DNA from: Candidatus Woesearchaeota archaeon
Lineage (GTDB): Archaea > Nanobdellota > Nanobdellia > Woesearchaeales > JAZDKJ01
DNA: 64,000 bases
Direction: 5' to 3'
Assembly (NCBI GenBank): GCA_043803105.1
Contig: JAZDKJ010000006.1
Location: 468,671 to 532,670, forward strand
In this document: positions 7,016 through 52,942 of the stretch, one piece after another
How the letters are laid out: each line of letters opens with the position of its first letter
Numbering within the stretch: position 1 is the first letter of the stretch
The notes under the pieces: generated by a model
Database searches by the model: none
What the model was told of the DNA's origin: nothing
What the model saw: the letters and a program-made list of their open reading frames with translations, nothing else
Program-made: the position numbers and the translations under genes

Positions 7016-7016
7016 A

Positions 7017-8588: not shown

Positions 8589-8589
8589 A

Positions 8590-9594: not shown

Positions 9595-9633
9595 ACAATT
9601 TGAATAGCTTATGGGATATATTTTTGGTGTCAA

Positions 9634-12065: not shown

Positions 12066-12136
12066 TATCCTTCAATCGTATCTGGGTTTCCAGCTTTCTT
12101 GGAGGTTTGCAAAAATTTATTTAGCAAATCGAGATT

Positions 12137-12505
12137 TTAGCCTACAATGCATACGCTTTCAGAGTCCGGTAATGATTCAGTTATGACCTGCTTGATTATT
12201 GGATTTTTCTCGATTATTTTGTTTCTTGATTTTATCTTGAATAGAAGTCTTATTTCAATTTTTCCTTCGCTTAGCATTGCTTTGTATTCCCATCTGGGTA
12301 TTTTCATCAGGATCTCTTTTTTTAAATTTAAGAATTTTGAGGCTTCAAATATCTGTATTCCCACCACAAATCCTTCTTGGTCAATGTCTACTGTGATGTT
12401 GTCCATTTCAACAGATTTCTTGTATTCACGATTTTTTGATTTTAAAAAAAGGATATCATGTTTATAATCATAGTCTGATTCTCCCGTTGTTTTTAGATTT
12501 TTCAT
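12137..12505 (-). CDS. DUF2283-like small protein (putative antitoxin partner)
   Basis: YDYKHDILFLKSKN...ITVDIDQEGFVVGIQIFEAS pattern. Overlaps the upstream DUF4258-like gene by 4 nt. Confidence 0.45.
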   Translation of the reverse strand: MKNLKTTGESDYDYKHDILFLKSKNREYKKSVEMDNITVDIDQEGFVVGIQIFEASKFLNLKKEILMKIPRWEYKAMLSEGKIEIRLLFKIKSRNKIIEKNPIIKQVITESLPDSESVCIVG

Positions 12506-12840
12506 TTTATCACCGGAACATCTTTCTTGTTTGTAACATAAAATGTGACAATTTCAATTGAATTTACCGAAATGTCCAATAACATCTTTATTATTTGACC
12601 TGTTGTAAAGTCATAATACGCCACATAAAGTCCATTATTCTGTTTTCCAACGAGTATTGGCTGTTTTTCAACAATATATCCTATTAGGTCCTCTTGTTTA
12701 ATAACCTTTCTTTGTTTTTCACTCAATCTGAAAAATGCATGGCTTGAGCATTTAATTCCTTTGAGTGTATATTGGTTTACGATGGTAAGAAAGTCTTCAG
12801 TGACAATTCTTTCCTTGATCTTATGTCCTTCTGTTACCAT
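12502..12840 (-). CDS. DUF4258-like small protein (putative toxin)
   Basis: SSHAFFRLSEKQRKVIKQEDL followed by a C-terminal beta segment IEIVTFYVT, in a two-gene operon. Confidence 0.45.
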   Translation of the reverse strand: MVTEGHKIKERIVTEDFLTIVNQYTLKGIKCSSHAFFRLSEKQRKVIKQEDLIGYIVEKQPILVGKQNNGLYVAYYDFTTGQIIKMLLDISVNSIEIVTFYVTNKKDVPVIK

Positions 12841-13017
12841 ATATTCTCGTTTGTAACATTGAAATTAGTTGTTAATAAGTATAGCCCATCATTTTCCGAA
12901 AATTTTCCAATTTGCGCAGATAAGTATAGTTTTACTTATCCTATATATAAAAAATATAATATAATAAGTATATAAATAACAACATTTAAATACTAGTATA
13001 CATAAAAGTATATTGAT

Positions 13018-13515
13018 TTGGTTAAAGATGTAAATAAAGAGGTGACAGTTGGTAATCTTCTCAGTAAATACTCTGATGTAGAGATTTGTGACCTTATTGA
13101 TGTCTTACAAGAGTACAGAAAGCAAAAAACAGAGCTTGGAATTCCAATTTCTATTTTTAGCAATCCTGAACTCGGGATTCTTGAAAGTGCAGTAAAATTT
13201 CTTAAGGAAAATCATTCCATGTCTTACGCGGCCATAGCAAAGGCTCTCAATCGTGACCAAAGAACTATCTGGTGCTCATACCATTCCGCTAACAATAAGG
13301 AACCTTCAAGATTGCCGGTTCACAAAACCACTTACCTGATACCTATATTGGTCATCTCGGAACGAAAATTCGGACCACTTGAAGCACTGGTTGTATTCTT
13401 AAGGGATAATCAGAAGTTAAGATTCACCGAAATTTCTCATATTTTACGACGTGACTATGCAACAATTTGGCGAACCTACCGTAATACAAGGAATACAAGA
13501 GGTCAAGATGTGTAA
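13018..13515 (+). CDS. Small protein with two HTH-like repeats (putative regulator)
   Basis: Internal duplication: SMSYAAIAKALNRDQRTIWCSYHSA and LRFTEISHILRRDYATIWRTYRNT. TTG start as given in the track. Sits upstream of the surface-protein gene and overlaps it. Confidence 0.45.
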   Translation: MVKDVNKEVTVGNLLSKYSDVEICDLIDVLQEYRKQKTELGIPISIFSNPELGILESAVKFLKENHSMSYAAIAKALNRDQRTIWCSYHSANNKEPSRLPVHKTTYLIPILVISERKFGPLEALVVFLRDNQKLRFTEISHILRRDYATIWRTYRNTRNTRGQDV

Positions 13516-16500
13516 CCCAACCAACAAATCAAAAAAGCACACCACAAGTTATCTCAAGGTTTGCGTCAAGCTTAATGTGGGCATCTTGTTCATAGCGCTG
13601 CTTGTGCCAATAACGTTAGCAGTCCCAAACTATGTACTGACAACTTCCAATGCAAACTATGTTGTAAATTCCACCACAGGACTTCTTGTTGAAGTGGTAA
13701 ATTCCGCAACAGGACAAACTTACATTAATGGCACCAACGGTGTAACTTTTAGCGATTCTGCGAGTAATACTATCTTTGGCGCAGATTTCAAAAATCCACT
13801 AGTTTTAACGGCTAATTTCAAGTTAATCGATTCAACAAGAATCGTTGCCGAACAGTCTCTCCCAGATTACAATATATCGTACAGCTATCAAACAATTGAC
13901 AATGAATTCTTGGAAATGGGAGTTAAGATTATCCGAAAAAATGCAAGCACTACTTCTAATTCGGAAATTCGCTTCGTATGGAAGTTAAATCCAGTATTTA
14001 GAAGGAATACTTATTTTACCCCCATAGATGGTGCCGATTTAAGCTTGAAGATGCGGACAAATACTTCAAGTGTTGTAATCCCTCGGAATTATTACAGAAT
14101 CGGCGCTAATACTATCTATATTTTCAACAATACAGAAGGATTATTGTTTGCTGTTCTCGCTCCAGAGACTATAAACTCGGAAACATCACCTTCTCACTTG
14201 GCAGATGAGTTTAGGTTTAATCCCACAGCAAATGAAGATTTTGAATGGAGAGTAAAAAGGATATTTTTTAACTCTACTTCAAGCAAAGTTGCTGTCTTTC
14301 AGGTAAATATTAGCATAATCGTCGGTAACAAACCTCAAGAAATGAAAGAAAAAATTTTCAAAACAATCTTTAATAAGACTAAATCACTTTTGGGTGATTG
14401 GTACCTTCTCGACTTGTCAACTTATCCAGATTGGAGTAAAAATCAGACCAACACTTTAGCTGAACAAGGCATAAAATTAGTCGAGATTCAGAACTGGCAG
14501 TCAAACCCATTTATTATTGATAAGGGAAATTGGAAAATCCCTGGAACCAACTATTCAACTAATGCTAGCCAACTAAATTCACTCTTAGATTATATGGTTT
14601 CAAAGGGCCTACACCCATTTCTCTATATGATACCTATAAGTCTGAATCAAACCCTGGCGGAACATTATTTTCCATCCGACATTATAATCAATCAAAGTGG
14701 AGGGTTTGCACCATTTATTGATCATGGTTATTACACAATGAGCCTCAACATGAATAGACTTTATGCAAAGAATAGAAGTCTCATGATTGATGTAATAACT
14801 GATACTTACCATAATATTTCGGGAATCTTTATTGATAGAACGGAAATCAAAATTAACGACTACGCAAACGAACATGAATCCTCATCGGGAATACGTTTTT
14901 GGGATGGCAGTGTGAATAAGAGTTTCATAGGAACTTATGATGACTACAGAAAATTTCTGGAAAACATATCCGTAAGGTTAAAAACCAAAAACAAACTGCT
15001 TTGGTTAAACTCAGTAGGGAGTTCTACTGTTGCTAAGCTAGCTGATATTGTCACTATGGATGGGAACAGTGAAACTTTCTGGGAGGATTATGCCCTATTT
15101 GGCTTGGACAAGCACACTGCTCATCTGCCTAATGATGGTGAAACACAAGCAACAAGGCTCAACGCAACAATATTGTGGGGTGCTAATATGGGCTGGGATT
15201 CATTAGACCAATTCACACTTTTTCCACTAAATAAAGACAAGAAACAATTGATTAGTATTGTTGCAAGCTCGAGATTTGTTAAGCATGAAGTCTCTCTTGA
15301 CAATAAATTGTATTATGTGGAATACGATAAAGTAATTACAACGGTTGGAAGCTGCAATTATACTGCTGTTCGAAAAGAAGATTTTTACTTCTTGAATAAT
15401 CATACTATAATTATGCGTAACATCACCAACCTTAACTGGAAATTCAGCAAAGGACCGTCAGGTAGCATAACAAATGTTATTTGGTTCGGCAACTTTGGTA
15501 TCTACAACCTTTCAGAGTCAAACGGTCTAGCCGTAGCGCAAAACGCTTCTGGCAATGTTATTGATGCTCTGGTGCCTATATGGATATCCTCCAGTTCAAA
15601 TAATGAGTCCAAAAATATCGACTCAAACCTAACAAAGACCGTAAATATTACAACAACCTTCAATGTTGAAAATTGCTCGATAGCTAAAATAAATTATACT
15701 TCTCATACCGGTTCATATTTCAAAAACTGGAACAGTGCTAATTTGACTTGTTCTAATAACAAAATTACGTTGAATCTCACTGGGGTCGAACCCGCCCAAG
15801 GAAGTAATACTTTACGAATTACATACTCTGGTCCACCTGTCTGCGGAGATTCTTCCTGCAACGGTAATGAGACCTGTGGCTCTTGCAGTCAGGATTGTGG
15901 TGTGTGCCTGTTCTGCGGCGATAGCTCCTGTAACAATGGAGAATCCTGCTCTTCCTGCCCGGCAGATTGTGGAGTTTGCCACAGTAGTGGCGGAGGCGGA
16001 GGCAGCTCCATAGCAATCAAACCCAAGCGAGACAGCAATATCAGCAAACAAAACGTCACTTTGTCGGCTCGCAATACAACCATAATTCAAAATAAAACAA
16101 AAGAAATCAAATCGTTAGACATCGTAACACCAGTCACTCAAGATAATCCAACAACAAAACCAAACATTACTGAACAGCCAGCAAGAATAAACAAGGATAA
16201 CAGAACCATCCCAATAATAGCAGTCTCAGCAGTAATTAGCGCAATCCTGACCTTGAGCATAGTAGGATTGCATAAGAAACAACACAAAGTAGCCAAACCC
16301 GTCACTAACTCATATCCAGCAGCAAAGCCTTATCCAGTCCTTACCTATGTCAAGATAAGCCAGCAAGCAAAGCCCGTCATGCCTCAAGTAGCTAAGCCAG
16401 TCTCAATCATACTGCCAAAAGAGCATCCTTATCTTGAGGCAGTCAACCAAAGGTTAAGTGAAAGCTTCGGAGATATTGAACCAGTAGATAATAACCTTAA

Positions 16501-41314: not shown

Positions 41315-41326
41315 ATGCGAGGGGAG
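41315..41326. repeat. att-like direct repeat, distal copy
   Basis: ATGCGAGGGGAG, identical to 52660-52671. Confidence 0.6.
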
Positions 41327-41416
41327 CGCAATAACCGTATAGTTTAATGCGTCTTCTTTTTCTTTATATACTTTTGCTTCTGTTGTTTTGCAGTATAGAA
41401 AAACTTAAATACTTAC

Positions 41417-41437
41417 TTATCTGATAATATCAGATAA
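41417..41437. promoter_or_regulatory. Perfect 21-bp palindrome (putative operator) between the TATA box and the first element gene
   Basis: TTATCTGATA-A-TATCAGATAA. Lies downstream of ACTTAAATACTT and 20 nt upstream of the ATG at 41458. Confidence 0.5.
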
Positions 41438-41457
41438 AGCATTTAGAGGTCAAAAAA

Positions 41458-41889
41458 ATGGTTCTGGAAATAAAAAAAGAGAAACACAAGTTTGAGGCCA
41501 CAATCACCAGGAACGGAACAAGCCTGTGCATCAACATCCCTGCCAGGCTGACAAGAAAGCTGCCCTTAAATGTTGGGGACGACGTTGATATTGAACTGTC
41601 CCGACACTATATTGAATTGCAACAGGACACTTATGACTTCTTGGCTTTGCTCCAGCACAAACCAGAAGTTAAAGGGTATAGTAAGGTTGAACTTTTGTCC
41701 TACATGGTTCTCAAACATGGAGCTGCAAAAGACCACAAGCAATTCTCTGAAGTGCTGGATGGGTTTACTGCAACAGACAAAAAACGCCTGCTGGAACTAG
41801 ACAAATTGCACCTTAACATAGGCTTGACAGAAGTCCCAGAGAAAGCTGAACAGAACACCAAGGCAACACCTGACAAAAAGGAGAGGTGA
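41458..41889 (+). CDS. AbrB/SpoVT-like DNA-binding protein (element regulator candidate)
   Basis: N-terminal NGTSLCINIPARLTRKLPLNVGDDVDIEL resembles a swapped-hairpin barrel. Confidence 0.4.
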   Translation: MVLEIKKEKHKFEATITRNGTSLCINIPARLTRKLPLNVGDDVDIELSRHYIELQQDTYDFLALLQHKPEVKGYSKVELLSYMVLKHGAAKDHKQFSEVLDGFTATDKKRLLELDKLHLNIGLTEVPEKAEQNTKATPDKKER

Positions 41890-42779
41890 CCAAGATGTTA
41901 TGCCAAAACCACGTCCAACCAGAAGTTTTCGCTAAAGAAAAAGCTGCCGTCATCTACAAAGAAGTGGTGGACGAAAGAGGCCGATTCATCAGGCCGGAAG
42001 AGTTCCAGTGGCTACTGGCCTACTTCAGAGACAGATACGACCCCAGAAGGCTAGTCCTGGCCTTAACCTACTGCGTCGGGCTAAGGATCCATGATGCCAC
42101 GAGGATTCGCATAAACAATTTCAACGAGGACTTTACCTACATGCGCATGCAGCAATGCAAAGCGCATGTGGTCAAAAAAAATGGTTTGACCAGGGTAACT
42201 TCCAAAACCAAAAACCACCCTTTGCCCGAATGGTTAAGTGCTGACATTCGAGGTTACGCTCAGTACCGGCTAGCAGTAGGCCACTACTTGAAAGTCGGCT
42301 GCGATAGCAAAAGACTGTTCCCCTCAGTGGAAAAAAGACAATTCTACTGCTTATTTGACAAACTCCGCAAGCGATATGGTGACGAACAACCGTGGCTCAG
42401 AGAAATTTGGTACATCGAAAAAAGATACGCTGCTGATGGACGGCTTATCGTCACAATCCCGAAGTTCAGAGTTGCCCCGCATATGGGCCGGGCCATGCAT
42501 GCTTGCGCTGCCAGAGCCGTCTGTGACGGCGACCTCTCAAGTGCTCGGCTGATAACCGGCCATAATGAGATGAAAGACATCCAGAGGTACACCCGGTACT
42601 CAGAGGTGGATGCCAAGAAGCAGGAGCTCGTTGACAGGTTTATGACTCCATTAAACCAAGTGCAGCCAATTCCTTTAACTAAAGACCAGAGAACCCTTGA
42701 AACTTTTGGCTTCCCAAAATTCAGGTTCATGGAAAATCCTTCAACAAAAGAAGGAAAAAACATAATAAGCCACAATTAA
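41886..42779 (+). CDS. Tyrosine recombinase-like protein
   Basis: Candidate catalytic residues in order: VGLRIHDATRI (Arg), APHMGRAMHA (His-x-x-Arg), ITGHNEMKDIQRYTRY (His, Tyr). Confidence 0.55.
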   Translation: MTKMLCQNHVQPEVFAKEKAAVIYKEVVDERGRFIRPEEFQWLLAYFRDRYDPRRLVLALTYCVGLRIHDATRIRINNFNEDFTYMRMQQCKAHVVKKNGLTRVTSKTKNHPLPEWLSADIRGYAQYRLAVGHYLKVGCDSKRLFPSVEKRQFYCLFDKLRKRYGDEQPWLREIWYIEKRYAADGRLIVTIPKFRVAPHMGRAMHACAARAVCDGDLSSARLITGHNEMKDIQRYTRYSEVDAKKQELVDRFMTPLNQVQPIPLTKDQRTLETFGFPKFRFMENPSTKEGKNIISHN

Positions 42780-42968
42780 CCATTTTTGCGATGTCCGATC
42801 AAGAAGCAAAGCGCAGAGTAGCCAAAGCGCGGGACAAGCTCACAACAGAAGAGCAAAATATAATCAAACTCATTGGATGGGCCCCAGAAGAAGAATAGCA
42901 AGAATACAAGGCCTTGCTAACATTAGAACTTGTCAAATAGCAAAATATATTAAGACGTAAACAATTGG

Positions 42969-43373
42969 TTAAGTCATGGAAGTAACAACCAGAAACCAAG
43001 AGCTAACCCTAAAAGTGTTTCTTTTGCTGATTGCAGCACTTGAAGCCACTGGTTGGGGATTGTTTTTGGCCATGAAGTGGTCTATTGAGCTCTGGCTTAA
43101 GTAAGCCAACTCTGCCGGGAAGTCCGGCAATCTTTTCTTCAGTAAACCTTTGTGCAAATTACAATATACAAATCCGTATATTTTTGTTTGGGTTGGATGC
43201 AACGCCAGGAAGTGCCTACAAAACGGCTCTAGTATATCCCAAGGTATACTTTCTAGCCCTTCCAGGTTATACTTTTTGTGCCTGTTTTTCCAAATCCTGA
43301 GCCTTATCGCGCAGTCTGGCCTTAACCTCAGACCTTTGTAGCGTCTGAAAGTAAACTGCCAATTCTTCATCAT
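42969..43373 (-). CDS. Hypothetical protein (start uncertain)
   Basis: Track ORF. Its 5' 107 nt overlap 43267..43551 in another frame, so the real extent is unclear. Confidence 0.3.
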   Translation of the reverse strand: MMKNWQFTFRRYKGLRLRPDCAIRLRIWKNRHKKYNLEGLESIPWDILEPFCRHFLALHPTQTKIYGFVYCNLHKGLLKKRLPDFPAELAYLSQSSIDHFMAKNNPQPVASSAAISKRNTFRVSSWFLVVTSMT

Positions 43374-43551
43374 TCAGGCCAGCATATACCTTTTGAGGAT
43401 TCTTGACAGCAGACAGGGCTAGGGTTATACTGAACTTCAAAGCCTTTGGAAAGTCACCATAGACCCCTGTTATTCCCATCAAAGAGGCCATCTCCTTGAC
43501 AGCAGCCTCTTCTTGCTCATTAAACGATATTGGAATCTTCTTCTGACTCAT
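43267..43551 (-). CDS. Hypothetical small protein, possibly RHH-like
   Basis: KKIPISFNEQEEAAVKEMASLMG has a beta-strand/helix pattern. Confidence 0.4.
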   Translation of the reverse strand: MSQKKIPISFNEQEEAAVKEMASLMGITGVYGDFPKALKFSITLALSAVKNPQKVYAGLNDEELAVYFQTLQRSEVKARLRDKAQDLEKQAQKV

Positions 43552-43563
43552 TGTGTAACCTCA

Positions 43564-43857
43564 TTAAGAATAGTTGAACCTCACGCCCCTCTTTGCCCTT
43601 CTTTCGTAAGTCCTGGCTCTCTTAGGACCCATCTTTCGATAACTGAAATACTTGGCAGTCCTTCTCAGCTTGCCCTTGGTCCTGTGAACTCGCAAGTTAT
43701 CCTTTTGAACATAGCTCTGCAACCTGTGTCTCAAGACTCTGGAACGACCAACATAAACCCTGCGCTTGTGCCGGTCATACAAAGAATACACTCCGGACCT
43801 GTTGGGAATCCTATCAGCTTTCTCCAAATTTCCCCGGGTTAATCGGCGAAGTCTCAT
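43564..43857 (-). CDS. GIY-YIG nuclease-domain protein
   Basis: SGVYSLYDRHKRRVYVGRSRVLRHRLQSY. Confidence 0.65.
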   Translation of the reverse strand: MRLRRLTRGNLEKADRIPNRSGVYSLYDRHKRRVYVGRSRVLRHRLQSYVQKDNLRVHRTKGKLRRTAKYFSYRKMGPKRARTYERRAKRGVRFNYS

Positions 43858-44183
43858 GGAACTAAATTGTGAGGGGGCGAGGTGAGACTTTCCCCCTCAC
43901 CTAAGGCTGGTGATGTTTTAATCTGTTCAGCATGACACACGAAGGTCTTACGGCCTTGGAACACTTTCTTGAGCCGGACTTCCAGGCAGCCAAGGCTTAT
44001 TTCTGGACCTATAAACTGGGCCGGAGAGGACAGGAACAGTTTGTCCGGCAACTCAACAGGATCCTTGGGGTTGCTGATGTCAAAGAGTCGTATCTGAAAA
44101 GCAAAGGCCAGCTTTCTTTTGGTGTCCTGTTCAACCATGGAAGGCCCCTCCGATTTGATGAGATAACCGGATAACACCATCAA
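43854..44183 (-). CDS. Hypothetical protein
   Basis: Overlaps the downstream gene by 4 nt. No motif recognised. Confidence 0.4.
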   Translation of the reverse strand: MMVLSGYLIKSEGPSMVEQDTKRKLAFAFQIRLFDISNPKDPVELPDKLFLSSPAQFIGPEISLGCLEVRLKKVFQGRKTFVCHAEQIKTSPALGEGESLTSPPHNLVP

Positions 44184-44346
44184 CAGTAATCTGCCACAGG
44201 TCAGCAGCCCAACTTACCACCAGTTCAATATACTGGGAATAAACAAAGGGTTGGGTCTCTTTCAAATAAAAGATGTAAAGGACACCAACAATCATACCAA
44301 GGAAAACAAAGAACCAGACCAAATGCTTGTAACGAAAAATTGGCAT
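44131..44346 (-). CDS. Small membrane protein
   Basis: TM helix LVWFFVFLGMIVGVLYIFYL. Confidence 0.35.
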   Translation of the reverse strand: MPIFRYKHLVWFFVFLGMIVGVLYIFYLKETQPFVYSQYIELVVSWAADLWQITVDGVIRLSHQIGGAFHG

Positions 44347-44361
44347 GAAATAGAAGCAAGG

Positions 44362-44619
44362 CTAGTGCTTTATTTGAGTTTGTTTAACAAGATAGGCAAG
44401 CTGCCGTTTAACCGCAACAATATCGGAGTGTAAAGAATCAACCTTCTGATTCAGCTCCTCAAGTTCGACGCGCCTATGGTCTAGCAAATCCCCTGCGCTG
44501 GCGATCAACCACCTTAAGAGGTCTGACTGATTTAAACGCTTAGTCTCTGCTAGTTGCTTGAACGCTTGCAGTTCTCGGTCACGCAATCTGCAAGCAACAA
44601 AGCCATCGTTCAGGCTCAT
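44362..44619 (-). CDS. Small DNA-binding-like protein
   Basis: LQAFKQLAETKRLNQSDLLRWLIASA helical pattern followed by a coiled-coil tail. Confidence 0.4.
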   Translation of the reverse strand: MSLNDGFVACRLRDRELQAFKQLAETKRLNQSDLLRWLIASAGDLLDHRRVELEELNQKVDSLHSDIVAVKRQLAYLVKQTQIKH

Positions 44620-44864
44620 TACTTCAGAATCCCCTTGAGTTTCAATTCGTCTAGCAAAAGCTTCCCGGCCTTGACTAATCGCATCAGCTCTCTAGGCTTG
44701 CACTGGATTGAAGGCTGCTTCCATCGACCCTTCCAGTAGTAGGACTTTGAAAGCTGGCACATCCCCCGGTTCTTCCAGTAGCAGGCTTGAGCATTCTTGA
44801 CCCTATAATCAAAGTCTGGCTTTGTTGTATTAATGTCTTCTTTATTCATTGTGTAACCTCTCAA
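44619..44864 (-). CDS. Hypothetical small protein, first gene after the iteron region
   Basis: Track ORF. Its stop abuts the start of the next gene. Confidence 0.4.
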   Translation of the reverse strand: MRGYTMNKEDINTTKPDFDYRVKNAQACYWKNRGMCQLSKSYYWKGRWKQPSIQCKPRELMRLVKAGKLLLDELKLKGILK

Positions 44865-44869
44865 AGCTA

Positions 44870-44926
44870 ATACGTAATATACGTAAGATACGTAGAGATA
44901 CTTATGGTACGTATTGTCATCGTAAG
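44870..44926. repeat. Iteron-like array of TACGTA-containing 9-10 bp units
   Basis: TACGTA at 44871, 44880, 44889 and 44908. Degenerate copies TACTTA at 44899 and TCGTAA at 44920. Confidence 0.6.
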
Positions 44927-44979
44927 ATTAATGCGGACATAATATATCAAATGCCGTAAGGATTTAAGCATCATTCTTG

Positions 44980-45816
44980 TCAAGAATCCTCATTCTCAGT
45001 GTCATCATCTTCATACAAGTCTTGCTTATCTTTCCCGGCCTTACTATCAATCGGCTTGCTTGTTGAACCTGTGGTATCTGTATCCTGGCTTGAGTTCAGT
45101 TGGTCCAGAGTCTCAAGAACAAAGTCAAGCTTAGAATCAATCTCAGCAGTCTTTATTGTAGCTGAATCAGTAGCAGTCTTCAATGACTGAACCTTGGATT
45201 GTAAAACAGACAGTTGTTCTTGCAGCTTATGAATGTCTGACAGGTCTTCTTTACTCATCGGGAACTCTGTATCATGCCGGACTTCAAACAATGCCTTCAA
45301 GAAAGATTCCTTAGAAGCCTTCTGCAATACCACAGCATCAAGCGCCAGGTTAAGCTTAGATAATAACGGCTTGTCAACACTCAAGCATCTGAGCTTGTCA
45401 CGGACTACGACACTGTGAAGGCAGAGGTCAGGGGTGTTGCGTGTATAAATTTCCAGGTCATCCATTACCTGAATGTTCTTAGTGCCAGGTGGAACCTTGT
45501 TGACTTTCTTATACATCGCTGCAATACTGCCTTCCACTTTCTCCTGGGCATCCTTCTTTAGATGTTCAACCTTCTGCAAAGCTTCAGTCTCAACAGCCTT
45601 GACTCTAGGCTCTATTGCTTTCAAGGCTTGAGCTGCAGCATCCTTTGATAGGTTGGTCAAGGTCCGGTCTTGTTGCTGGAGATCAACCTTCAAGTTGTAG
45701 ATGGCATCAGCACATCCTTTTCTCAAGCTGTCAATACTCTTCTCTGTTGCTAACATTCTTTGGCTCAAGGTCTGCATCCCAAGGTCCAAGTCTTCCATCT
45801 TAGTTTTACCAAACAT
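44980..45816 (-). CDS. Coiled-coil protein with acidic C-terminal tail
   Basis: Start taken at ATG 45816, just after the upstream stop. C-terminus DLYEDDDTENEDS. Confidence 0.45.
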   Translation of the reverse strand: MFGKTKMEDLDLGMQTLSQRMLATEKSIDSLRKGCADAIYNLKVDLQQQDRTLTNLSKDAAAQALKAIEPRVKAVETEALQKVEHLKKDAQEKVEGSIAAMYKKVNKVPPGTKNIQVMDDLEIYTRNTPDLCLHSVVVRDKLRCLSVDKPLLSKLNLALDAVVLQKASKESFLKALFEVRHDTEFPMSKEDLSDIHKLQEQLSVLQSKVQSLKTATDSATIKTAEIDSKLDFVLETLDQLNSSQDTDTTGSTSKPIDSKAGKDKQDLYEDDDTENEDS

Positions 45817-45817
45817 T

Positions 45818-46033
45818 TCAATCGCCTCCTGGTGCTCCACGTTGAAAAGGAACAATGACTGGCTTGACCTTCTTGTCACATCTGGGACAGAACCATAAGC
45901 CGTCCTTAGTACCGACATAATCGTCTCGAATATAATCTGACCTCAGAAAGAAACCACAAGTCGGACAACTAACTGAGACTTTAACAAAAATGTTATTGTG
46001 TGTTTCTTTATAGTACATAGTCTTGCACCTCAC
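45818..46033 (-). CDS. Zinc-ribbon protein
   Basis: CPTCGFF...CPRCDKK. Confidence 0.5.
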   Translation of the reverse strand: MRCKTMYYKETHNNIFVKVSVSCPTCGFFLRSDYIRDDYVGTKDGLWFCPRCDKKVKPVIVPFQRGAPGGD

Positions 46034-46248
46034 TTCTTAACAGCACTTGGGCTGTCACCACTCCCTAACTTTATTGCAGCCCAAAAACAAACAACACAAA
46101 CAACTACGCTGCCTAAGAAGAGTTGAAAGAAAATATGCCACAAATCGCCGAAAAAGACTGAAGCAATCGCAACAATCAAACTGCCAAAGGCAACTACCCA
46201 CAACAAGGTCCTACCGGTGTTAGATTCGCTAGGCTTACTTGGGTTCAT
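46030..46248 (-). CDS. Small two-TM membrane protein
   Basis: LLWVVAFGSLIVAIASVFF and FLGSVVVCVVCFWAAI. Confidence 0.45.
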   Translation of the reverse strand: MNPSKPSESNTGRTLLWVVAFGSLIVAIASVFFGDLWHIFFQLFLGSVVVCVVCFWAAIKLGSGDSPSAVKK

Positions 46249-46378
46249 TGTCCTTGACCTCTTCTTCTGTGGGCTTCATGCTCTCAGCCTCTTCCAAAAT
46301 GCTGACTCCTTTCTTTGAGCGCTTCCAAAACTTCCCTTGCACCTTTGCCTTGATGTCTTGCCATAGTCTCATAGTCAA

Positions 46379-46618
46379 TCACCTTTGTTGATTGTTAAAT
46401 TCCAGTACTTCGTTGTTAGCCTTCAAGTTCTGCCTGACAATAAAGTCCAAAAGCCTCTTCCGAGTCACATTACATTTACAACAAACGTGAAAGAAGATGA
46501 TTCCCTGACTTGACTCTTCCAGCCGGTAGGTCATGCCTTCCTGCTTCGGACAAGAAGGTTTGCCACAAAAAACACAGTAACAAAAGTTTTGAGAGCAAGA
46601 CATCAGACAACACCCCAC
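46379..46618 (-). CDS. Cys-rich zinc-finger-like protein
   Basis: CSQNFCYCVFCGKPSCP...HVCCKCNV. Confidence 0.45.
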   Translation of the reverse strand: MGCCLMSCSQNFCYCVFCGKPSCPKQEGMTYRLEESSQGIIFFHVCCKCNVTRKRLLDFIVRQNLKANNEVLEFNNQQR

Positions 46619-49011
46619 TTATCAAAAGAACCCTTATTGAACACAACCCCTAAAGTGCGCATCCGTTCAAGACGTTCAACAATCAGCTTCTCATCACAAC
46701 CTCTAGACTTGGCAAACATTATAATGGCCTGAGTTAGAACGCCATCACCCTTGTCCCTCTCCTTAATAAAAGTCTTAACATCCTGGTCTGTAATCTCAGA
46801 GATAAGCCCTAGGCGTTTCTTGATTCTGTCATCAAAAATAATTCCCATGATTGGATACTTGTAATTGGGAAGCCGGACATTAAGGATGGTATCTCCTTCA
46901 ATAAAACCCAAGTCTAACAGCAACGCATGGAAGCGAGAGGAGCCAATGGTCATAATATTCAGGCTCTTCAAGAACATAATGTACTCCTCATACATTTTGT
47001 TTTTGGGGTAAGCAAAAGCTCCAGGGTGAATCCCATCAAGACCCTTCTTAAATTCACCCTGGTCTGAATGGTTCTCATAAACGTCAACAAGCTTGCGCTG
47101 CAAAGCTTCCAAGTAATAATCACTGCTAACAGATTCGTTTGCTTGCTTTGCAACCATCAAAGAATTAAGCTGAGACAGTCGGATGCCAACCAACTTGGAA
47201 ACACACAAGGCAGTATAGGCCATCTCATTATTTCGGCCTGCCAACTTTCTAAGGAGATTTATGTCATCTTCTGGAAATTGGCTCGTAAGCTTGTCAAATA
47301 ATGCTTGACGTTGGTCCATGGGGGTACCCCTACAGCTCACTACACCACTACAGGTTACTACAGGCAGCCATGCTTGTTTTTCCTCAAAAACACGCTGAAG
47401 ATTCTCTAAAGCCCAAAACCACATCTCATCTGCCAAAGGCTTAATGATTTGGTGCTTAACAGTGTTAATCACCGGCAAACGCGAGTCTGTAGTAACACTA
47501 GCATGAATAAAAAAAGTTCTCTGATTCAAAGCATCTTCTGTCAAGCTCCTGATGCTATAGCCATGAGGTCCAGCCACATCGTAAGCCTTTGGAGTGTGAT
47601 TCTTACCTTCGCAACGCACATAAGGATTGCCACGCCTCTGACCTTTACGCAAAATTGAGACTACCTCTTGCTCCCCATGCTCTCCTATCTTCTGGTCCAA
47701 CTCATCCACTAGCAAGCTCAAAGAATGGTCTTCGCACATCCTGGCCAAAGCAGCCGCGCTCACATCACCACCCATAAAACCATGATAAGCCAAAAACGAA
47801 AGGATCTCCAAGAGGGTAGTCTTACCACTTCCCCTTGTTGCATCCACACCAAGATAAAAAAAAGAATCCAAGACAGGAGCAATATACGTCTGACCAACAT
47901 ACAACTGACACATAGACAAATCCTGAACATCATTAAAATCATAAAGAAGAGAGATAACTCTAGCCACATCTTCCAAAATCGCGGACAAAGGTCTGATGGT
48001 CAATTTTCCATCAAGCCACTCCTGCACCCTTTCCATAGAAGGCACATTATACGGAGCTTTCTGAGGAGCATGAGAAAATAGATATTTCTGACCCTCCCAC
48101 TCAAAAAAATGATTTACAAACTTACTCTCCTCATCCTTCTCAGACTTAACCAAAAAAAGACACTTCTTGCCACCAATGACACCAGCAAACATGCGCGGAC
48201 TAACTTGACCAACACAAAGCTGAGACGTCGGGTCGAAATAACCCCAGCTCTTTATATTGTAGTGAGATGTAGTAATGTAGTGACTTGTAGTAGTAGTTGG
48301 ATGGACAATACTCTCGTTTTTGCTTTGAGCTTTTGAATATGTCTTTTCGCGGTAGGCAGGTGGCGCGCTTGCCCACTTGGCAAAAGCCTGCATAGCTTCA
48401 AACACTTCTTCTTTGGTCTTGCCTGCTTTGATCAGCTTGCAGACTTCGGCGAACTCTCTGCCTGAACGGCTTTTGTCTGCGGACTTTGGCTCTTCCTGAT
48501 TCGCTTCTGTTGAGGTTGCATCATCCTTTATGTATGGCTTAATCAGGTTTTTAAGATACTCCTCACTGTATTCCATGATGAAGGCACCATTAACAACCTC
48601 GTAAGTCTTTCCCTTCGCTTCTGGTCTTTTTGGGTCATCATAAGAAGAGCCAGGACCTACAACCTGATAATTATTAGCCCTCAGTTCACCTACACCTGGC
48701 AAAACATGGTTTTTGCTGTACGGACAAATGAAATAGAAATGTCTGCCTTGGCTGCCAGGACTTTTGACTGTGAATGTTTCAAGCTGGAATTTGTCAAGCA
48801 CTTCCAGATGGTCCACATCAAGGATTCTTAGATTACCATAGCCACCAATAACTCCGTAATTGCCACCAGCAGCTATCCATTCAACTAATTTTTTGTCATC
48901 ATACCTGTACCCCTTCTTTTGCCATTCGGATTCAAAAGGTCTTTTGCCCTTGAGGAGAACAAATCTGAACTCTGGCTTTTGGAGTTGTGTAGGGATGTTC
49001 ATTGCTGGCAC
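46603..49011 (-). CDS. Replication protein: prim-pol (AEP) domain fused to a P-loop helicase-like domain
   Basis: N-terminal bifunctional primase-polymerase pattern (GNYGVIGGYGNLRILDVDH, SPGSQGRHFYF). Central Walker A GVDATRGSGKTTLLE and Walker B-like LLVDELD. Confidence 0.85.
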   Translation of the reverse strand: MPAMNIPTQLQKPEFRFVLLKGKRPFESEWQKKGYRYDDKKLVEWIAAGGNYGVIGGYGNLRILDVDHLEVLDKFQLETFTVKSPGSQGRHFYFICPYSKNHVLPGVGELRANNYQVVGPGSSYDDPKRPEAKGKTYEVVNGAFIMEYSEEYLKNLIKPYIKDDATSTEANQEEPKSADKSRSGREFAEVCKLIKAGKTKEEVFEAMQAFAKWASAPPAYREKTYSKAQSKNESIVHPTTTTSHYITTSHYNIKSWGYFDPTSQLCVGQVSPRMFAGVIGGKKCLFLVKSEKDEESKFVNHFFEWEGQKYLFSHAPQKAPYNVPSMERVQEWLDGKLTIRPLSAILEDVARVISLLYDFNDVQDLSMCQLYVGQTYIAPVLDSFFYLGVDATRGSGKTTLLEILSFLAYHGFMGGDVSAAALARMCEDHSLSLLVDELDQKIGEHGEQEVVSILRKGQRRGNPYVRCEGKNHTPKAYDVAGPHGYSIRSLTEDALNQRTFFIHASVTTDSRLPVINTVKHQIIKPLADEMWFWALENLQRVFEEKQAWLPVVTCSGVVSCRGTPMDQRQALFDKLTSQFPEDDINLLRKLAGRNNEMAYTALCVSKLVGIRLSQLNSLMVAKQANESVSSDYYLEALQRKLVDVYENHSDQGEFKKGLDGIHPGAFAYPKNKMYEEYIMFLKSLNIMTIGSSRFHALLLDLGFIEGDTILNVRLPNYKYPIMGIIFDDRIKKRLGLISEITDQDVKTFIKERDKGDGVLTQAIIMFAKSRGCDEKLIVERLERMRTLGVVFNKGSFDKWGVV

Positions 49012-49208
49012 CCGATCTTTTGCATTTTGCCTTGGTCAATTTTATATTCCTGATCATCGACTAAGAATGAGACTTGGCAACTTCCATCATTCCATAAAAT
49101 TAATTTGATAGTGAAGGCGCGTTTATACTTAACAGCTAATTCTGCCTGTAATTGCCGTAGTGCAATATTGAGGCAAAAAGGCACGAAGAGGGGATTTGTA
49201 TCATTCAT
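48999..49208 (-). CDS. Hypothetical small protein
   Basis: Track ORF overlapping both neighbours. Confidence 0.35.
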   Translation of the reverse strand: MNDTNPLFVPFCLNIALRQLQAELAVKYKRAFTIKLILWNDGSCQVSFLVDDQEYKIDQGKMQKIGCQQ

Positions 49209-49402
49209 TTTTTCCCCTCTGGCGCGCTCAAATCTGTGATTTTTACTATCGCCCTTTTGCCAATAATAATATAATGCTCTTCGCCATCGATAGGCTGGAC
49301 AGTCATGGTAAAATCGTCATCTTCGATGATAACGCCTCTTAGAACTTTTGTGACTCCTTGGTCCTCGAAGACAATCTTTTTCAATCCTTCATCCCATTTC
49401 AT
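49205..49402 (-). CDS. Hypothetical small protein
   Basis: Track ORF, beta-rich sequence. Confidence 0.35.
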   Translation of the reverse strand: MKWDEGLKKIVFEDQGVTKVLRGVIIEDDDFTMTVQPIDGEEHYIIIGKRAIVKITDLSAPEGKK

Positions 49403-49457
49403 TCATTAAACCTCAGTTTCCCGACGCCTGCAAACGCGCCTGGATAGCCCTTCTTAA

Positions 49458-49589
49458 TTACTTCACACGATTTCGGCTGTGGGTCTGCTCCCAATAGGCT
49501 TTCCTACAGCTTTCATCACAAAACTTGCTGTTTGTGCGCTTCCATGCCGGAATAGCCTTCTCACAGTGAACGCAATGGCCATCATTCAT
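49458..49589 (-). CDS. Small zinc-binding protein, 43 aa
   Basis: Below the track threshold. MNDGHCVHCEKAIPAWKRTNSKFCDESCRKAYWEQTHSRNRVK (CxxC...CxxxC). Overlaps the upstream small ORF by 8 nt. Confidence 0.35.
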   Translation of the reverse strand: MNDGHCVHCEKAIPAWKRTNSKFCDESCRKAYWEQTHSRNRVK

Positions 49590-49713
49590 GCTTGGCCTTA
49601 TCCTTGCGGAGTATCTTCAAAGCCTCGTCAATATCTTTGGCTCCGAGTTCTCGCACAATGTCTTCTGCCATTCTGGTAATCTTTTGCTGAAAGTCTAAGT
49701 TGGAAGCAGTCAT
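49582..49713 (-). CDS. Small hypothetical protein, 43 aa
   Basis: Below the track threshold. MTASNLDFQQKITRMAEDIVRELGAKDIDEALKILRKDKAKHE. Confidence 0.3.
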   Translation of the reverse strand: MTASNLDFQQKITRMAEDIVRELGAKDIDEALKILRKDKAKHE

Positions 49714-49723
49714 AGTGTCTTTC

Positions 49724-49867
49724 TCATATTGCCTTGATTTTTTCCATAGCAGCAAGCCTTACGAAGCTACTTTTGCTGAGTTGTAGGCTTTGTGCTGCTT
49801 TTTCTATTGCCTGCATGAATTCCTCATTGACTTCCATAGTGAAAATCTTCTTATCTTTTCTTGGCAT
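49724..49867 (-). CDS. Ribbon-helix-helix (CopG/Arc-like) protein
   Basis: MPRKDKKIFTMEVNEEFMQAIEKAAQSLQLSKSSFVRLAAMEKI. The track ORF start at 49948 is an upstream extension. Confidence 0.5.
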   Translation of the reverse strand: MPRKDKKIFTMEVNEEFMQAIEKAAQSLQLSKSSFVRLAAMEKIKAI

Positions 49868-49921
49868 ACTAGAGTAGTATACAGTAAAATTTATATAGTA
49901 TTCGTACATATTGTACCTAAA

Positions 49922-51289
49922 ATGCCAAGAAAAATTACAATTGAACAAGTGAATAATAAGATAGCAAAGTTGATTGCCAAACGAGAAATGTTAGAAAGGA
50001 AAGAAGATAAAGAAACTTATGATATTGATTTTACAAGCACCAAACAGCAATATCCAATATATCAACAACTTAAGCATGGGTATAGGGGTGACATTGGTAG
50101 GCTACTCTATTACCATATGTTGAATCCGAAATCACGTGCTGATAAATTTGTTAAGGATAAGAAAAAATTGAGTCCTAACTCTGACCCAAAAAAGGCCCAA
50201 AACTTGGCTGCCAAAATTAGAGTTTATACATTAACACTTGAAAATGATTACAGATTAATCTCGAGGACAGGCACAAGGGGAAAAATTGTTCAAGTGAACT
50301 ATCAACGAATCCTAGAAGAGCTCTTTGAGAAGCTTGCACTTTCAAGGCGCAAAAATAAGGAAAATGGAGAACATAACAAAGTAGTTCTTACGTTTATGGA
50401 ATATCTCATCGACCGATATGGCGCAGAACCTTTCTTAATTCAATTTAGCACAAAACAAAAGCGAGCAAAGCTAAAACACCTTTTCAGCACAATGAGGGGA
50501 GAAGTGGATGACGACGAATCTCAAGAAGCGAAGGGAAGAGAACAAGAAATAAAAATTCTCCGTTTTCATGTAGTCTCAGAATTATTGGAAAACTATTACA
50601 AGAGTATCCAGATAGCAAGACAAATTCACGATGGATTCTTCCGATTTGACAGTCCACAATTAATAGATACTATGGGTGCTGAACTAGAAATGTTTGACAA
50701 AGACTTAGATATTTTTTATCATTATTTTGTAGCCAAAGGAAAAAGGGACCTTGGTCAGGCTATTATGCGAAAACTTACTTTTGGTCCAAAAGGTGAGAGG
50801 AAACATTTGGACTTGTTGGAGGTTTTTCAAAAGTGGGAGTTCTCTTGTAAGGGTTTCCTTCAGAATTTATCGAATAACAATGAGAGAGTTCTATTTCTGC
50901 TTTCAGTATTTCCCTTCCCAATACCTTTTTATGATATTAGAACAAAGGATGTTTATTGTGTTGACCCAACCAAGGAAGAAGTTGAATCCTGCCAAAAGGT
51001 CTTTTCTAAATTATTTGAGAGATTCTTCGACTTTTACAAGTTACGAAAAATTAACCAGTCAGACTATAAGAAAGATTATATGATTGAAGAAAATCATTTT
51101 AAGTTGCTCCAAAAAGAGTTCAACTTTCTGCGCATCAGAAGGCAGTCGCTTCTAAAACAAAATAAATATCTAGAGTTGTTGTTCTTAAACCATGATGTTG
51201 TGGATAAGCTTTTGTTGAAGATAAAAACTGAGACGGAAGATTACCTGGAGCATGTTGAGGACATAGCTACAGTGTATAAAACAAAATGA
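49922..51289 (+). CDS. Hypothetical 455 aa protein, AT-rich cargo gene of the element
   Basis: ATG 49922 is preceded by the palindrome GTACATATTGTAC. No motif recognised. Visibly lower GC than the rest of the element. Confidence 0.5.
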   Translation: MPRKITIEQVNNKIAKLIAKREMLERKEDKETYDIDFTSTKQQYPIYQQLKHGYRGDIGRLLYYHMLNPKSRADKFVKDKKKLSPNSDPKKAQNLAAKIRVYTLTLENDYRLISRTGTRGKIVQVNYQRILEELFEKLALSRRKNKENGEHNKVVLTFMEYLIDRYGAEPFLIQFSTKQKRAKLKHLFSTMRGEVDDDESQEAKGREQEIKILRFHVVSELLENYYKSIQIARQIHDGFFRFDSPQLIDTMGAELEMFDKDLDIFYHYFVAKGKRDLGQAIMRKLTFGPKGERKHLDLLEVFQKWEFSCKGFLQNLSNNNERVLFLLSVFPFPIPFYDIRTKDVYCVDPTKEEVESCQKVFSKLFERFFDFYKLRKINQSDYKKDYMIEENHFKLLQKEFNFLRIRRQSLLKQNKYLELLFLNHDVVDKLLLKIKTETEDYLEHVEDIATVYKTK

Positions 51290-51290
51290 A

Positions 51291-52586
51291 CTAGAATTTG
51301 ATTCCTTTTGCCCTGAATACCAATTCTATCTTTTTCTGGAAGTCGCTGAAATCCCCTTGCATCTGGTCTATCTTCTGCTGTTGCAGCTTGCTTTCTTCTT
51401 CCTTGGCCTTGATCTCCGCCTCAATTACTTGGTGGTCAAGTGGCCTTTTGCACTTGTCACAAATGCTCTCAGCTAACCCATTCAAAGCCCCACAGAACAC
51501 ACAAGGTTTGGTTGTTGGCTCAAACTCTTTGTGGTTCGCATCTGCTTTGATTATTCCGCGCTTTATGAGGTCTATCTTGAAGCTTTCTTCTTGCGTTGAT
51601 AGGTCGTAGGTTTTTAGTTGTTTTGTGCTGGTCCATCTTGCTGTGTGCTGTATGTCTAGGTCGCTTGCGCCTCTGAGTCGCATGATGGTCACTCCGTTGC
51701 GCTTGAGGGAGTACAGGGTTATGGGTTTTTTGATTCCGAGTTGCTTGCATCTTTCTCTGATGAGTTTGTTGGCTGCTGTAGGAGTCATTTGGCAGTGCCT
51801 GTTGGTTCTGCCTGTGTTCACGAATAGGTAAGCGTTCTTGTCTTTTCTGTTAGGGTGCTCATTAATCCATTTGGCAAGGTAGAAGTAGCTGTCAATGATT
51901 CTTAGAAAGCCTGTGCCTTCTTTTCCGTGTTCTGTAACCCATAGCTTTGCATAGTTCTCGTGGAGCTCAACATCTTTTATCTTTCGGCCTAGTAATTCTT
52001 GAGGTCTGCCAAGGCTCTCAAGCATCACAGTCAGTAGGCACTGCATCCTTGAGTCATCCGCGAAAGCTTGAACTAACTGCTCGAATTCGTCTAGCTCGAA
52101 TTTGTCTCCGCGCAGTTTCTCTTTTGATTTGTCGATTTTGCCGTTAAGGTGTCGGACCACGTAAGGCGTTATTGTGTCATCGATTCTGCCTCTCTCATCT
52201 TTTTCGGGGAAAAGTTGTTTCCAGAGAAATTTGAGGTCCAGGCTAAAATCTCTTTTCGACTTCATGCTTTTGTTGACTGTGTGCGCAAAGGTCATTACTT
52301 TATCAATGTCTTTTCTGTCGTCAATGCTTGCAAGGTCTTTGTCTGTTACATGGCATACTATCAAGAAGGTTCTGAATAGTCGTAAGCGTCTGATAAAGCT
52401 GATGTCTCTGGCTGAGAATATTTTAGCTAGTTCGAGAAAGTGCTTTTTGTTTTCTTTGTTTTTTATCCAGTACTTGCGTCTTACTTCGTCACGATTTGAG
52501 AAGTCTGGTTTTCTGCAATAGATGTCTAGTTTAGAAAGGAATGTCTCGTATCGTTTTTGGTTGTTGTAGATGTCGTTATCGGCCAT
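51291..52586 (-). CDS. Tyrosine integrase with C-terminal zinc ribbon and coiled coil
   Basis: MLESLGRPQELLG (Arg), LYSLKRNGVT, DIQHTARWTSTKQLKTY (His...Tyr), CVFCGALNGLAESICDKCKRPL. Adjacent to the tRNA 3' end. Confidence 0.8.
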   Translation of the reverse strand: MADNDIYNNQKRYETFLSKLDIYCRKPDFSNRDEVRRKYWIKNKENKKHFLELAKIFSARDISFIRRLRLFRTFLIVCHVTDKDLASIDDRKDIDKVMTFAHTVNKSMKSKRDFSLDLKFLWKQLFPEKDERGRIDDTITPYVVRHLNGKIDKSKEKLRGDKFELDEFEQLVQAFADDSRMQCLLTVMLESLGRPQELLGRKIKDVELHENYAKLWVTEHGKEGTGFLRIIDSYFYLAKWINEHPNRKDKNAYLFVNTGRTNRHCQMTPTAANKLIRERCKQLGIKKPITLYSLKRNGVTIMRLRGASDLDIQHTARWTSTKQLKTYDLSTQEESFKIDLIKRGIIKADANHKEFEPTTKPCVFCGALNGLAESICDKCKRPLDHQVIEAEIKAKEEESKLQQQKIDQMQGDFSDFQKKIELVFRAKGIKF

Positions 52587-52659
52587 ATTCTGTTTGCTCG
52601 TCGATAACTAGCATAAGAATTACAAGTATATAAATGTTTCGCATTAAACCATAAGGATA

Positions 52660-52671
52660 ATGCGAGGGGAG
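52660..52671. repeat. att-like direct repeat, tRNA-proximal copy
   Basis: ATGCGAGGGGAG is the complement of CTCCCCTCGCAT, the acceptor 3' strand and discriminator of tRNA-Leu. Confidence 0.6.
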
Positions 52672-52942
52672 GGATTTTCGATGCTGTTAGGAACGTCTTT
52701 TGGCATTAGCCAAAAGTTTTTCCCAGGTTCGCTTACCGAACTTAAGGTTCGGTGGCGTGCCAGAAAACCTTTGGTTTTCTGAGCATTTTCCTATTGAAAA
52801 AAGCTGTTTCGAACCCTCGGACCCACTAAGGGACAGGATATCATAGATCATTCCCTTAAGTCCTGCGCATTTGGTCTGAACCGCAGGTTCTGACGCTTTG
52901 AAAACCTATGGTTTTCATTTGACCAGGCTCTGCCACCCTCGC
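52661..52942 (-). tRNA. tRNA-Leu(UAA), class II, with three putative introns
   Basis: Hand-folded. Acceptor GCGAGGG/CCCUCGC plus A73, D-stem GCA/UGC, anticodon stem CAGGA/UCCUG, loop CUUAAGA. Variable arm UCCCUUAGUGGGUCC, T-arm GAGGG-UUCGAAU-CCCUC. 86 nt remain after removing ~48, 15 and ~133 nt insertions. Confidence 0.65.

Follow-up and report, generated by a model that had tools for sequence, protein, structure and literature searches.

Small integrated elements that carry a tyrosine integrase and lack the hallmark genes of viruses or conjugation have been described in Thaumarchaeota under the name of cryptic integrated elements (CIE); they are mostly shorter than 20 kb, often occupy tRNA genes, are bounded by the direct repeats attL and attR and, in some cases, encode primase-polymerase (prim-pol) and helicase proteins or MCM-like helicases, and the authors of that survey consider that they could represent plasmids or viruses not known so far (PMC6563490). 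Here we describe an 11,345-bp element of this kind from a DPANN archaeon of the order Woesearchaeales, Candidatus Woesearchaeota archaeon (assembly GCA_043803105.1; 1.56 Mb in 13 contigs, 96% complete), where it is integrated at the 3' end of a tRNA-Leu(UAA) gene within a 64-kb stretch of contig C6 that was analysed as a whole and is referred to below as the window. The element appears to fall within the published definition of CIE: the size, the tyrosine integrase, the tRNA target and the attL/attR repeats are alike, and no hallmark gene was found with Pfam or PHROGs. It differs from the thaumarchaeal elements in its DPANN host, in a direct-repeat core of only 12 bp, in a second, short tyrosine recombinase and in a prim-pol fused to an MCM/Cch-like AAA+ helicase, whereas the thaumarchaeal cases have an S3H domain.

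Several other known systems resemble the element in individual modules. The pRN1-family plasmids of Sulfolobales, which range in size from 5 to 14 kb and include integrative members, encode the protein ORF904, the N-terminal prim-pol of which is homologous to that of the element (profile match at ~3e-10), and the likeness may extend to the small ribbon-helix-helix (RHH) gene, CopG-like at sub-threshold scores, that heads the replication operon here; in contrast, the helicase part of the protein is nearest to MCM, Cch and SaPI Rep rather than to the ORF904 helicase, no other gene is shared, and the hosts belong to different phyla. Cch of SCCmec (5dgk) and the replication initiator of SaPIbov1 (8tch), like the protein discussed here, are replicative helicases of integrase-bearing islands and are the best Foldseek matches of its C-terminal 560 residues (E-values of 1.5e-7 and 1.5e-6, respectively), but both are bacterial and unfused to a prim-pol, with an identity of 10-12% and whole-chain TM-scores of 0.23-0.33. 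Finally, judged by the layout of gene and att site and not by sequence, the integrase is of what we take to be the pNOB8 (non-partitioning) type, in which the gene stays intact after integration and att lies outside it; a tRNA gene is the target here, too. An integrase of the SSV (self-partitioning) type is ruled out by the single intact frame of 431 codons and by the position of att outside the gene, 74 nt upstream of its start.

The direct repeat and the tRNA-Leu(UAA) gene

The core repeat ATGCGAGGGGAG is present exactly twice in the window, at the two places given in the preliminary description of this DNA (Table 1), and none of 100 shuffled sequences contained any match. A search of the complete genome recovered a third copy, on another contig and within coding-looking DNA; because only ~0.2 chance copies are expected in the 3.1 Mb of two-stranded sequence and the genome holds a single extra one, the 12-mer is not a common sequence. 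The left copy lies beyond genes of chromosomal character (a copper ATPase, a GT4 glycosyltransferase and a VTT/DedA protein), and the right copy, as had been proposed, consists of the last 11 nt of a tRNA-Leu gene and 1 flanking nucleotide. Flanking direct repeats with one copy inside the target gene are what marks attL and attR in CIE, and the pattern seen here recurs in two related elements of the order that are discussed below (genomes G096 and G345). The delimitation of the element by a repeat at the 3' end of tRNA-Leu is well supported.

No tRNA at all is detected in the window by either ARAGORN or Rfam, even with permissive thresholds near the site; the tRNA-Leu gene escapes them because it contains three introns. 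Reading by hand, we found on the minus strand the sequence GCGAGGG at 52942 and its complement, followed by a discriminator A, ending at 52661. The introns are located in the D-loop (~48 nt), at the canonical position in the anticodon loop (15 nt) and in the T-loop (~132 nt). The hand-spliced 87-nt sequence is called tRNA-Leu(taa) by ARAGORN and has a class II variable arm; the splice point chosen in the T-loop leaves the loop one nucleotide too long, and the exact intron borders are ambiguous. When the unspliced pre-tRNA is folded, the acceptor and T stems are formed and the T-loop insert makes up a structured, multi-hairpin domain (z = -6.7). Sequences 72-92% identical to this insert (52676-52807, minus strand) occur elsewhere in the same genome (C8:7981-8064, C6:303870-303953, C6:36757-36804, C6:403684-403742 and C7:13120-13218 of G000).

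The interrupted gene is the only tRNA-Leu(UAA) detectable in the host, and it stays whole after the insertion, the element supplying an identical set of the last 11 nt. Even with the intron search enabled, ARAGORN identifies only 5 tRNAs in the entire 96%-complete genome; thus, the heavy intron load is a property of the genome and not of this tRNA-Leu alone, and most tRNA genes of this archaeon must be interrupted or otherwise atypical.

The recombination site and the integrase lineage in Woesearchaeales

The symmetry of the two ends extends well beyond the core. The 10-bp inverted repeat that was noticed in the preliminary description 15 and 10 nt inside the two core copies (GTTTAATGCG at 41342-41351 and CGCATTAAAC at 52640-52649) is part of longer, 25-nt arms that are inverted with respect to each other and complementary in 21 of the 25 positions (84%), the left arm abutting the repeat and the right one overlapping the core by 5 nt. 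The alignment of the two 78-nt arms outscores all of 1000 shuffles, and farther in, each end carries one of a pair of inverted TTTATATACTT boxes. Recombination sites are expected to be symmetric in this way, and a chance match of the left 12-mer would hardly account for it. Joining the ends via a single core yields CGCATTA-N11-TAATGCG-AGGGGAG-CGCAATA-N11-TAATGCG. As reconstructed, this attP would consist of two inverted half-sites around a 7-bp spacer, with an outer copy of each, placed between divergent TATA-like boxes. Strand exchange is confined to the 12 shared bases, and the crossover most probably falls within AGGGGAG. Three of the four TTAATGCG octamers of the window are inside the element, two of them in the att arms (41344-41351 and 52640-52647) and one next to a group of TACGTA iterons (44928-44935); a total of four in the window is not significant by itself, being reached in 17 of 100 shuffles.

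The closest solved structure to the 431-aa integrase by sequence is XerA (5hxy, 4.6e-7). To trace the lineage, this genome and 400 others of the order were searched at a cut-off of E<=1e-20. Homologues were found in 24 of the 401 genomes, the present one included; in approximately 18 of the 23 others, the homologue is 41-64% identical to this integrase. They are spread patchily over many families of the order, and the one other genome of the genus has none. For at least 15 of the 24 loci, a tRNA 3' end precedes the integrase start by ~60-90 nt on the same strand. Ten of these tRNAs are named by ARAGORN (Lys, Ala, Gly, Tyr, Glu twice, Leu-UAA, Leu-UAG, Trp and Cys), and five further loci, including the one described here, show a perfect 7-bp acceptor stem starting with G, several of them with T-loop insertions; the tRNA calls rest on these two kinds of evidence. 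Simple counting of 7-nt acceptor-stem complements was also tried as a test for tRNAs and was rejected as non-discriminating (23 of the 24 loci vs 14 of 24 in shuffled sequences). tRNA-Leu(UAA) is the target in four loci. The tRNAs targeted at three of the loci (L060 of G345, L079 of G066:C106 and L081 of G033:C9) also appear to have T-loop insertions; these tRNA genes precede the integrase genes, and the insertions separate a GGTTCAAA/GGTTCGAA-like half from a TCCCGG-like one. A second, distant homologue of the integrase (25% identical) is encoded in the same genome as the element, at G000:C7:31206-32273, and may mark another integrated element.

Two of the related loci could be delimited in the same manner. 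The first, in a genome from another family of the order (G096), encodes an integrase that is 48% identical to the one described here and abuts a one-intron tRNA-Leu(UAA); the 13-mer TGCGAGGGGAGGG recurs 11,276 bp away and encloses a prim-pol replication gene and a 962-aa orphan. In the second (G345; locus L085, G345:C11:1-16000), with an integrase identity of 58%, a 13-mer composed of the tRNA end and two more bases recurs 14,005 bp away, and the cargo is a type III restriction-modification pair and two proteins with nucleotidyltransferase domains, without a replication protein. Given that the repeats of both are 13 bp long, cores of 12-13 bp at the extreme 3' end of the tRNA are typical of integrases of this lineage.

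At 13-16 nt inside the element, the final 5-7 nt of the tRNA are repeated in inverted orientation, and this copy varies with the tRNA (for example, GGCGCAT/ATGCGCC, GGGCAT/ATGCCC and TCGCATT/AATGCGA). Perfect inverted repeats of at least 6 nt are found in 13 of the 24 loci, whereas 200 shuffles gave 2.7 such loci on average and 8 at most. These copies fit putative integrase-binding half-sites that would track the target tRNA.

Replication, the second recombinase and the nature of the element

The largest gene of the element encodes a replication protein in which, on the evidence of profiles and a structural model, a prim-pol is fused to an MCM/Cch-like AAA+ helicase. The N-terminal part matches the Pfam Prim-Pol family (1.6e-7), and a profile built from 27 homologues matches the prim-pol of pRN1 ORF904 (1rni and 3m1m) with the significance given above. 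The C-terminal 560 residues belong to no Pfam family, and neither D5_N nor DUF5906 was matched in the protein or in its full-length homologues. Folded with 26 sequences, this part gave a model with a predicted local distance difference test score (pLDDT) of 81 and a predicted TM-score (pTM) of 0.71, in which a beta domain (residues 9-70) is followed by an alpha/beta core. MCM joins Cch and the SaPIbov1 initiator among the best Foldseek matches of the model, with the SF3 helicase of SV40 large T antigen ranking lower; a VIA-align comparison with MCM subunits gave Z = 14.6 and a root-mean-square deviation of 4.2 A over 264 aligned residues. Walker motifs are present in the protein, and in the family alignment (A3), G152, G154, K155 and T156 (Walker A), D194 and E195 (Walker B) and several arginines are invariant. 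The replication gene of the G096 element has the usual prim-pol, D5_N and DUF5906 arrangement.

Homologues of the replication protein are 30-45% identical to it, and nearly all are encoded on metagenome contigs of 3-15 kb; contigs of 5-15 kb are composed of an integrase, small genes and a resolvase, without host genes. The homologues that can be named come from assemblies of Aenigmarchaeota and Nanoarchaeota, in keeping with a DPANN host. Within the order, the family is patchy, being present in 20 of the 401 genomes, this one included (E<=1e-10). Two observations pertain to the organization of these relatives. A 15,134-bp contig (L026; Joint Genome Institute (JGI) 3300028883) contains two complete related elements in tandem, each ~7.5 kb long and composed of an integrase, an RHH gene, a replication gene, a ~140-aa gene, a ~280-aa P-loop ATPase and a serine resolvase. 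Two other contigs (L016 and L017; JGI 3300008339 and 3300008450) have one overlap at the replication gene and another at a 955-aa gene, and these gene overlaps imply a putative circular relative of ~10 kb without host genes.

The element encodes a second tyrosine recombinase, of 297 aa, at the end opposite to the integrase, which the preliminary description considered unusual and possibly indicative of a composite or tandem structure. Neither suggestion is supported. Contigs with a related replication protein usually carry both a tyrosine integrase and a serine resolvase, and one carries two tyrosine recombinases, so that a second recombinase is common among the relatives. The 297-aa protein shows no pairwise similarity to the 431-aa integrase and, therefore, is not its duplicate. 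Only 21 relatives were detected at E<1e-10 among 1.84 billion representative proteins, all of them short (~250-275 aa) and sharing the Arg, Lys, His and Tyr of active tyrosine recombinases. The few contexts that could be retrieved are short contigs of small genes, one with another tyrosine recombinase and a transposase fragment. No internal att core or remnant of a tRNA 3' end was found within the element with up to 3 mismatches in 21 nt allowed, the only match being an 83% 12-mer inside the replication gene, and on these grounds a tandem or composite structure was rejected.

Under the composite scenario, the locus would consist of two elements, or of an element and a remnant, with the AbrB-like/297-aa module (41327 to ~42900) as a small integrative unit of its own or a relic of an earlier occupant of the site. 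In its favour are the two unrelated recombinases, one per end, the tandem array found among the relatives, and the left module itself, which is transcribed from the other strand and has no counterpart in the G096 element, its slot there being filled by other genes. Against these stand the lack of any third or degenerate att core or tRNA 3' end between the modules and the fact that the recombinase module is directly adjoined by the partners of the arm and the TATA-like box at the integrase end, which places this module inside the symmetric attP, facing the integrase across it. Moreover, a search of 400 other genomes of the order recovered no member of the 297-aa family, and nothing shows it to be an independent integrating unit there. 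We regard a composite origin as highly unlikely and conclude that the 297-aa recombinase is an accessory enzyme of a single element, two recombinases being the norm among elements of this pool. Its likeliest role, given the resolvases that the relatives carry, would be the resolution of multimers; excision, or control of excision, is an alternative suggested by its position opposite the integrase at attP.

Table 1. Features of the integrated element and its target, by position in the window
Feature	Position	Strand	Remarks
attL core, left copy of the 12-bp repeat	41315..41326		Exact match; in the intergenic gap past the last chromosomal open reading frame (end 41261)
Left inner arm, CGCAATA-N11-TAATGCG	41327..41351		Inverted copy of 52640-52664
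TTTATATACTT box, TATA-like	41363..41381	+	Faces the AbrB-like/recombinase operon; putative promoter
Perfect 11-1-11 palindrome before the AbrB-like gene	41416..41438		Read from sequence; candidate operator
143-aa protein, AbrB/SpoVT-like N-terminus	41458..41889	+	Pfam AbrB-like E 0.022, below cut-off; overlaps the recombinase start by 4 nt
Second tyrosine recombinase, 297 aa	41886..42779	+	PHROG integrase 1e-12; Pfam match below cut-off
94-aa small protein, RHH-like by eye	43267..43551	-	No family match
97-aa GIY-YIG domain protein	43564..43857	-	Pfam GIY-YIG 8e-6, above cut-off
109-aa orphan protein	43854..44183	-	No family match
71-aa protein, one hydrophobic helix	44131..44346	-	No family match
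Two small genes, 85 aa (RHH-like/coiled) and 81 aa	44362..44864	-	Head of the distal operon; sub-threshold matches only
Iteron-like cluster, four TACGTA hexamers, 9-10 bp phasing	44871..44913		Candidate origin or operator
278-aa coiled-coil protein, acidic tail (312 aa from upstream ATG)	44980..45816	-	Predicted all-helical (AlphaFold2 model)
Three small genes: 71-aa CxxC...CxxC zinc-ribbon, 72-aa with two hydrophobic helices, 79-aa Cys-rich	45818..46618	-	Weak zinc-ribbon matches
Replication protein, 802 aa (799 aa from ATG)	46603..49011	-	pRN1-type prim-pol (N-terminal) fused to an MCM/Cch-like AAA+ helicase (C-terminal)
Two small genes, 69 and 65 aa	48999..49402	-	Translationally coupled, upstream of the replication gene; no family match
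46-aa RHH (CopG/NikA-like) protein	49724..49864	-	Head of the replication operon; all matches below cut-offs
455-aa AT-rich orphan gene	49922..51289	+	Convergent with the integrase gene; GC 0.36 in 50001-51000
Tyrosine integrase, 431 aa	51291..52586	-	Pfam Phage_integrase 3e-12; PHROG integrase 2e-16; start 74 nt from the tRNA end
TTTATATACTT box, TATA-like	52616..52634	-	Upstream of the integrase gene; putative promoter
Right inner arm, CGCATTA-N11-TAATGCG	52640..52664		Overlaps the core by its final 5 nt
attR core, right copy of the repeat	52660..52671		Last 11 nt of tRNA-Leu(UAA) and 1 flanking nt
tRNA-Leu(UAA), three introns	52661..52942	-	Exons ~52942-52918, 52869-52855, 52839-52808 and 52675-52661

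The remaining gene content (Table 1) is largely as first described, with a GIY-YIG protein and several Cys-rich and RHH-like small proteins in addition to the integrase, the replication protein and the second recombinase; the RHH assignments are sub-threshold, the 46-aa protein scoring 3e-4 against a NikA-like family, 0.018 against RHH_1, 0.05 against CopG and 0.01 against an Arc-like repressor PHROG. A 134-aa open reading frame (42969-43373) that overlaps the 94-aa gene is of uncertain reality. All four TACGTA sites of the window fall within the 43 nt of the iteron-like cluster. The 455-aa orphan has no match in Pfam, PHROGs or Atlas, and in the G096 element, its slot is taken by a different, 199-aa gene. 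For the 278/312-aa protein, there was no family match in Pfam or PHROGs and no usable lead in Atlas; the single-sequence AlphaFold2 model of the 278-aa product, which the preliminary description had recommended to inspect for a capsid fold, contains long helices only, at a low confidence (pLDDT 53) that is too poor for a structure search. The ~280-aa protein encoded after the replication gene in the relatives was considered as its counterpart and rejected, being an unrelated P-loop ATPase; family matches were uninformative. Outside the element, the region 7000-15000 of the window has a lower GC content (0.31-0.38, vs ~0.42 elsewhere) and may represent a further island or a locus for surface proteins.

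Pfam and PHROGs revealed no gene for a capsid, portal, terminase or known archaeal virion protein and none for conjugation, and searches of Atlas gave no lead. Searches of phage and plasmid collections yielded only weak, partial matches to the ATPase region of the replication protein, and peptide patterns from this protein found nothing in IMG/VR or in species genomes. The preliminary characterization of the locus as an integrated plasmid, or a virus with unrecognizable structural genes, is still the right statement. Between the two, we favour, as the probable though by no means certain reading, a single integrative and self-replicating plasmid-like element, that is, a CIE.

A provirus of an undescribed group of Woesearchaeota viruses, in which some of the orphans encode virion proteins without detectable relatives, is possible but, in our estimate, unlikely. 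Small archaeal viruses, such as the spindle-shaped and pleomorphic ones, build their virions from short hydrophobic helical proteins that are missed by standard profiles, and approximately half of the genes of the element match no family. The candidates would be its two small hydrophobic proteins, namely the 72-aa protein with two helices and the 71-aa membrane protein with one, together with the 278-aa coiled-coil protein and the 455-aa protein. Furthermore, a 930-970-aa orphan and the ~280-aa P-loop ATPase are often found together in elements with a related replication protein or integrase, a pairing in which one could serve in receptor binding and the other as a packaging or assembly NTPase. 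However, the element described here has neither the ~280-aa ATPase nor the ~950-aa protein, the low-confidence model of the 278-aa protein consists entirely of long helices, searches of IMG/VR and the phage collection recovered no relative, and no capsid, portal, terminase or known archaeal virion family of Pfam or PHROGs was matched. A further reading, that the locus represents an undescribed virus or virus-like agent, or else a two-recombinase integration/excision switch operating across a palindromic attP with twin promoters, of a kind undescribed in archaea, we consider rather doubtful.

Several points weigh against the plasmid-like reading or at least against confidence in it. The 12-bp core is short, and the GC content does not distinguish the element from its flanks. 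At the DNA level, the flanks match nothing in 40 relatives except for the tRNA exons; the sole genome of the same genus shows no synteny, the left-flank glycosyltransferase having only paralogues there and the right-flank gene being unmatched, and at 90% identity the flank proteins as well as the integrase cluster alone in a collection of 15 billion proteins. The orphans that make up about half of the genes, including the two small membrane-type proteins, the coiled-coil protein and the 455-aa protein, could each be a virion component. Present-day mobility is judged plausible from anatomy and comparison.

That the element, once integrated in the way proposed here, has since decayed into an immobile island that neither excises nor replicates appears extremely improbable. 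No evidence of excision was obtainable, and the possible overlapping open reading frames at 42969-43551 and the AT-rich orphan insert at 49922-51289 could be taken as signs of decay, but the two core copies are identical, the operons are intact with coupled start and stop codons, and the integrase, the replication protein and the second recombinase are all full-length, with catalytic or Walker residues conserved against their families.

A proposed cycle and its implications

Under the preferred interpretation of a plasmid-like element, the 431-aa integrase would recombine the near-palindromic attP of the circle with the 3' end of tRNA-Leu(UAA), the strands being exchanged within the shared 12 bp and most probably in the AGGGGAG spacer between the inverted half-sites TAATGCG and CGCAATA. 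The incoming element would bring the identical last 11 nt and so keep the tRNA whole, and the displaced copy would come to lie at 41315. The circle would replicate by means of its own prim-pol/MCM-Cch-like helicase protein, the gene for which belongs to an operon headed by a putative RHH (CopG-like) regulator, with the TACGTA iterons as the candidate origin. In the circular form, the 297-aa recombinase and its AbrB-like partner would be transcribed away from attP, opposite to the integrase, from the matching TATA-like box, and this recombinase would most likely resolve multimers, or else help or control excision.

The element is real, well-delimited and fairly ordinary in kind. Its interest lies primarily in the host: integrated elements of DPANN archaea are little documented, and the mobile DNA of this host group has been little described. 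Standard pipelines would miss the site, the target being a tRNA gene with three introns that is not called by tRNA finders. A single integrase lineage, distributed patchily across Woesearchaeales, uses 12-13-bp cores at the 3' ends of many kinds of tRNA. Its cargo is varied: two of the elements are plasmid-like replicons, and a third is a type III restriction-modification island. The prim-pol/MCM-Cch-like helicase fusion and the rare short recombinase are modest additions to the known modules. The integrase lineage offers a practical handle for cataloguing mobile DNA in Woesearchaeales genomes, and the element provides a candidate replicon and integrase for the development of genetic tools in a group that has none.

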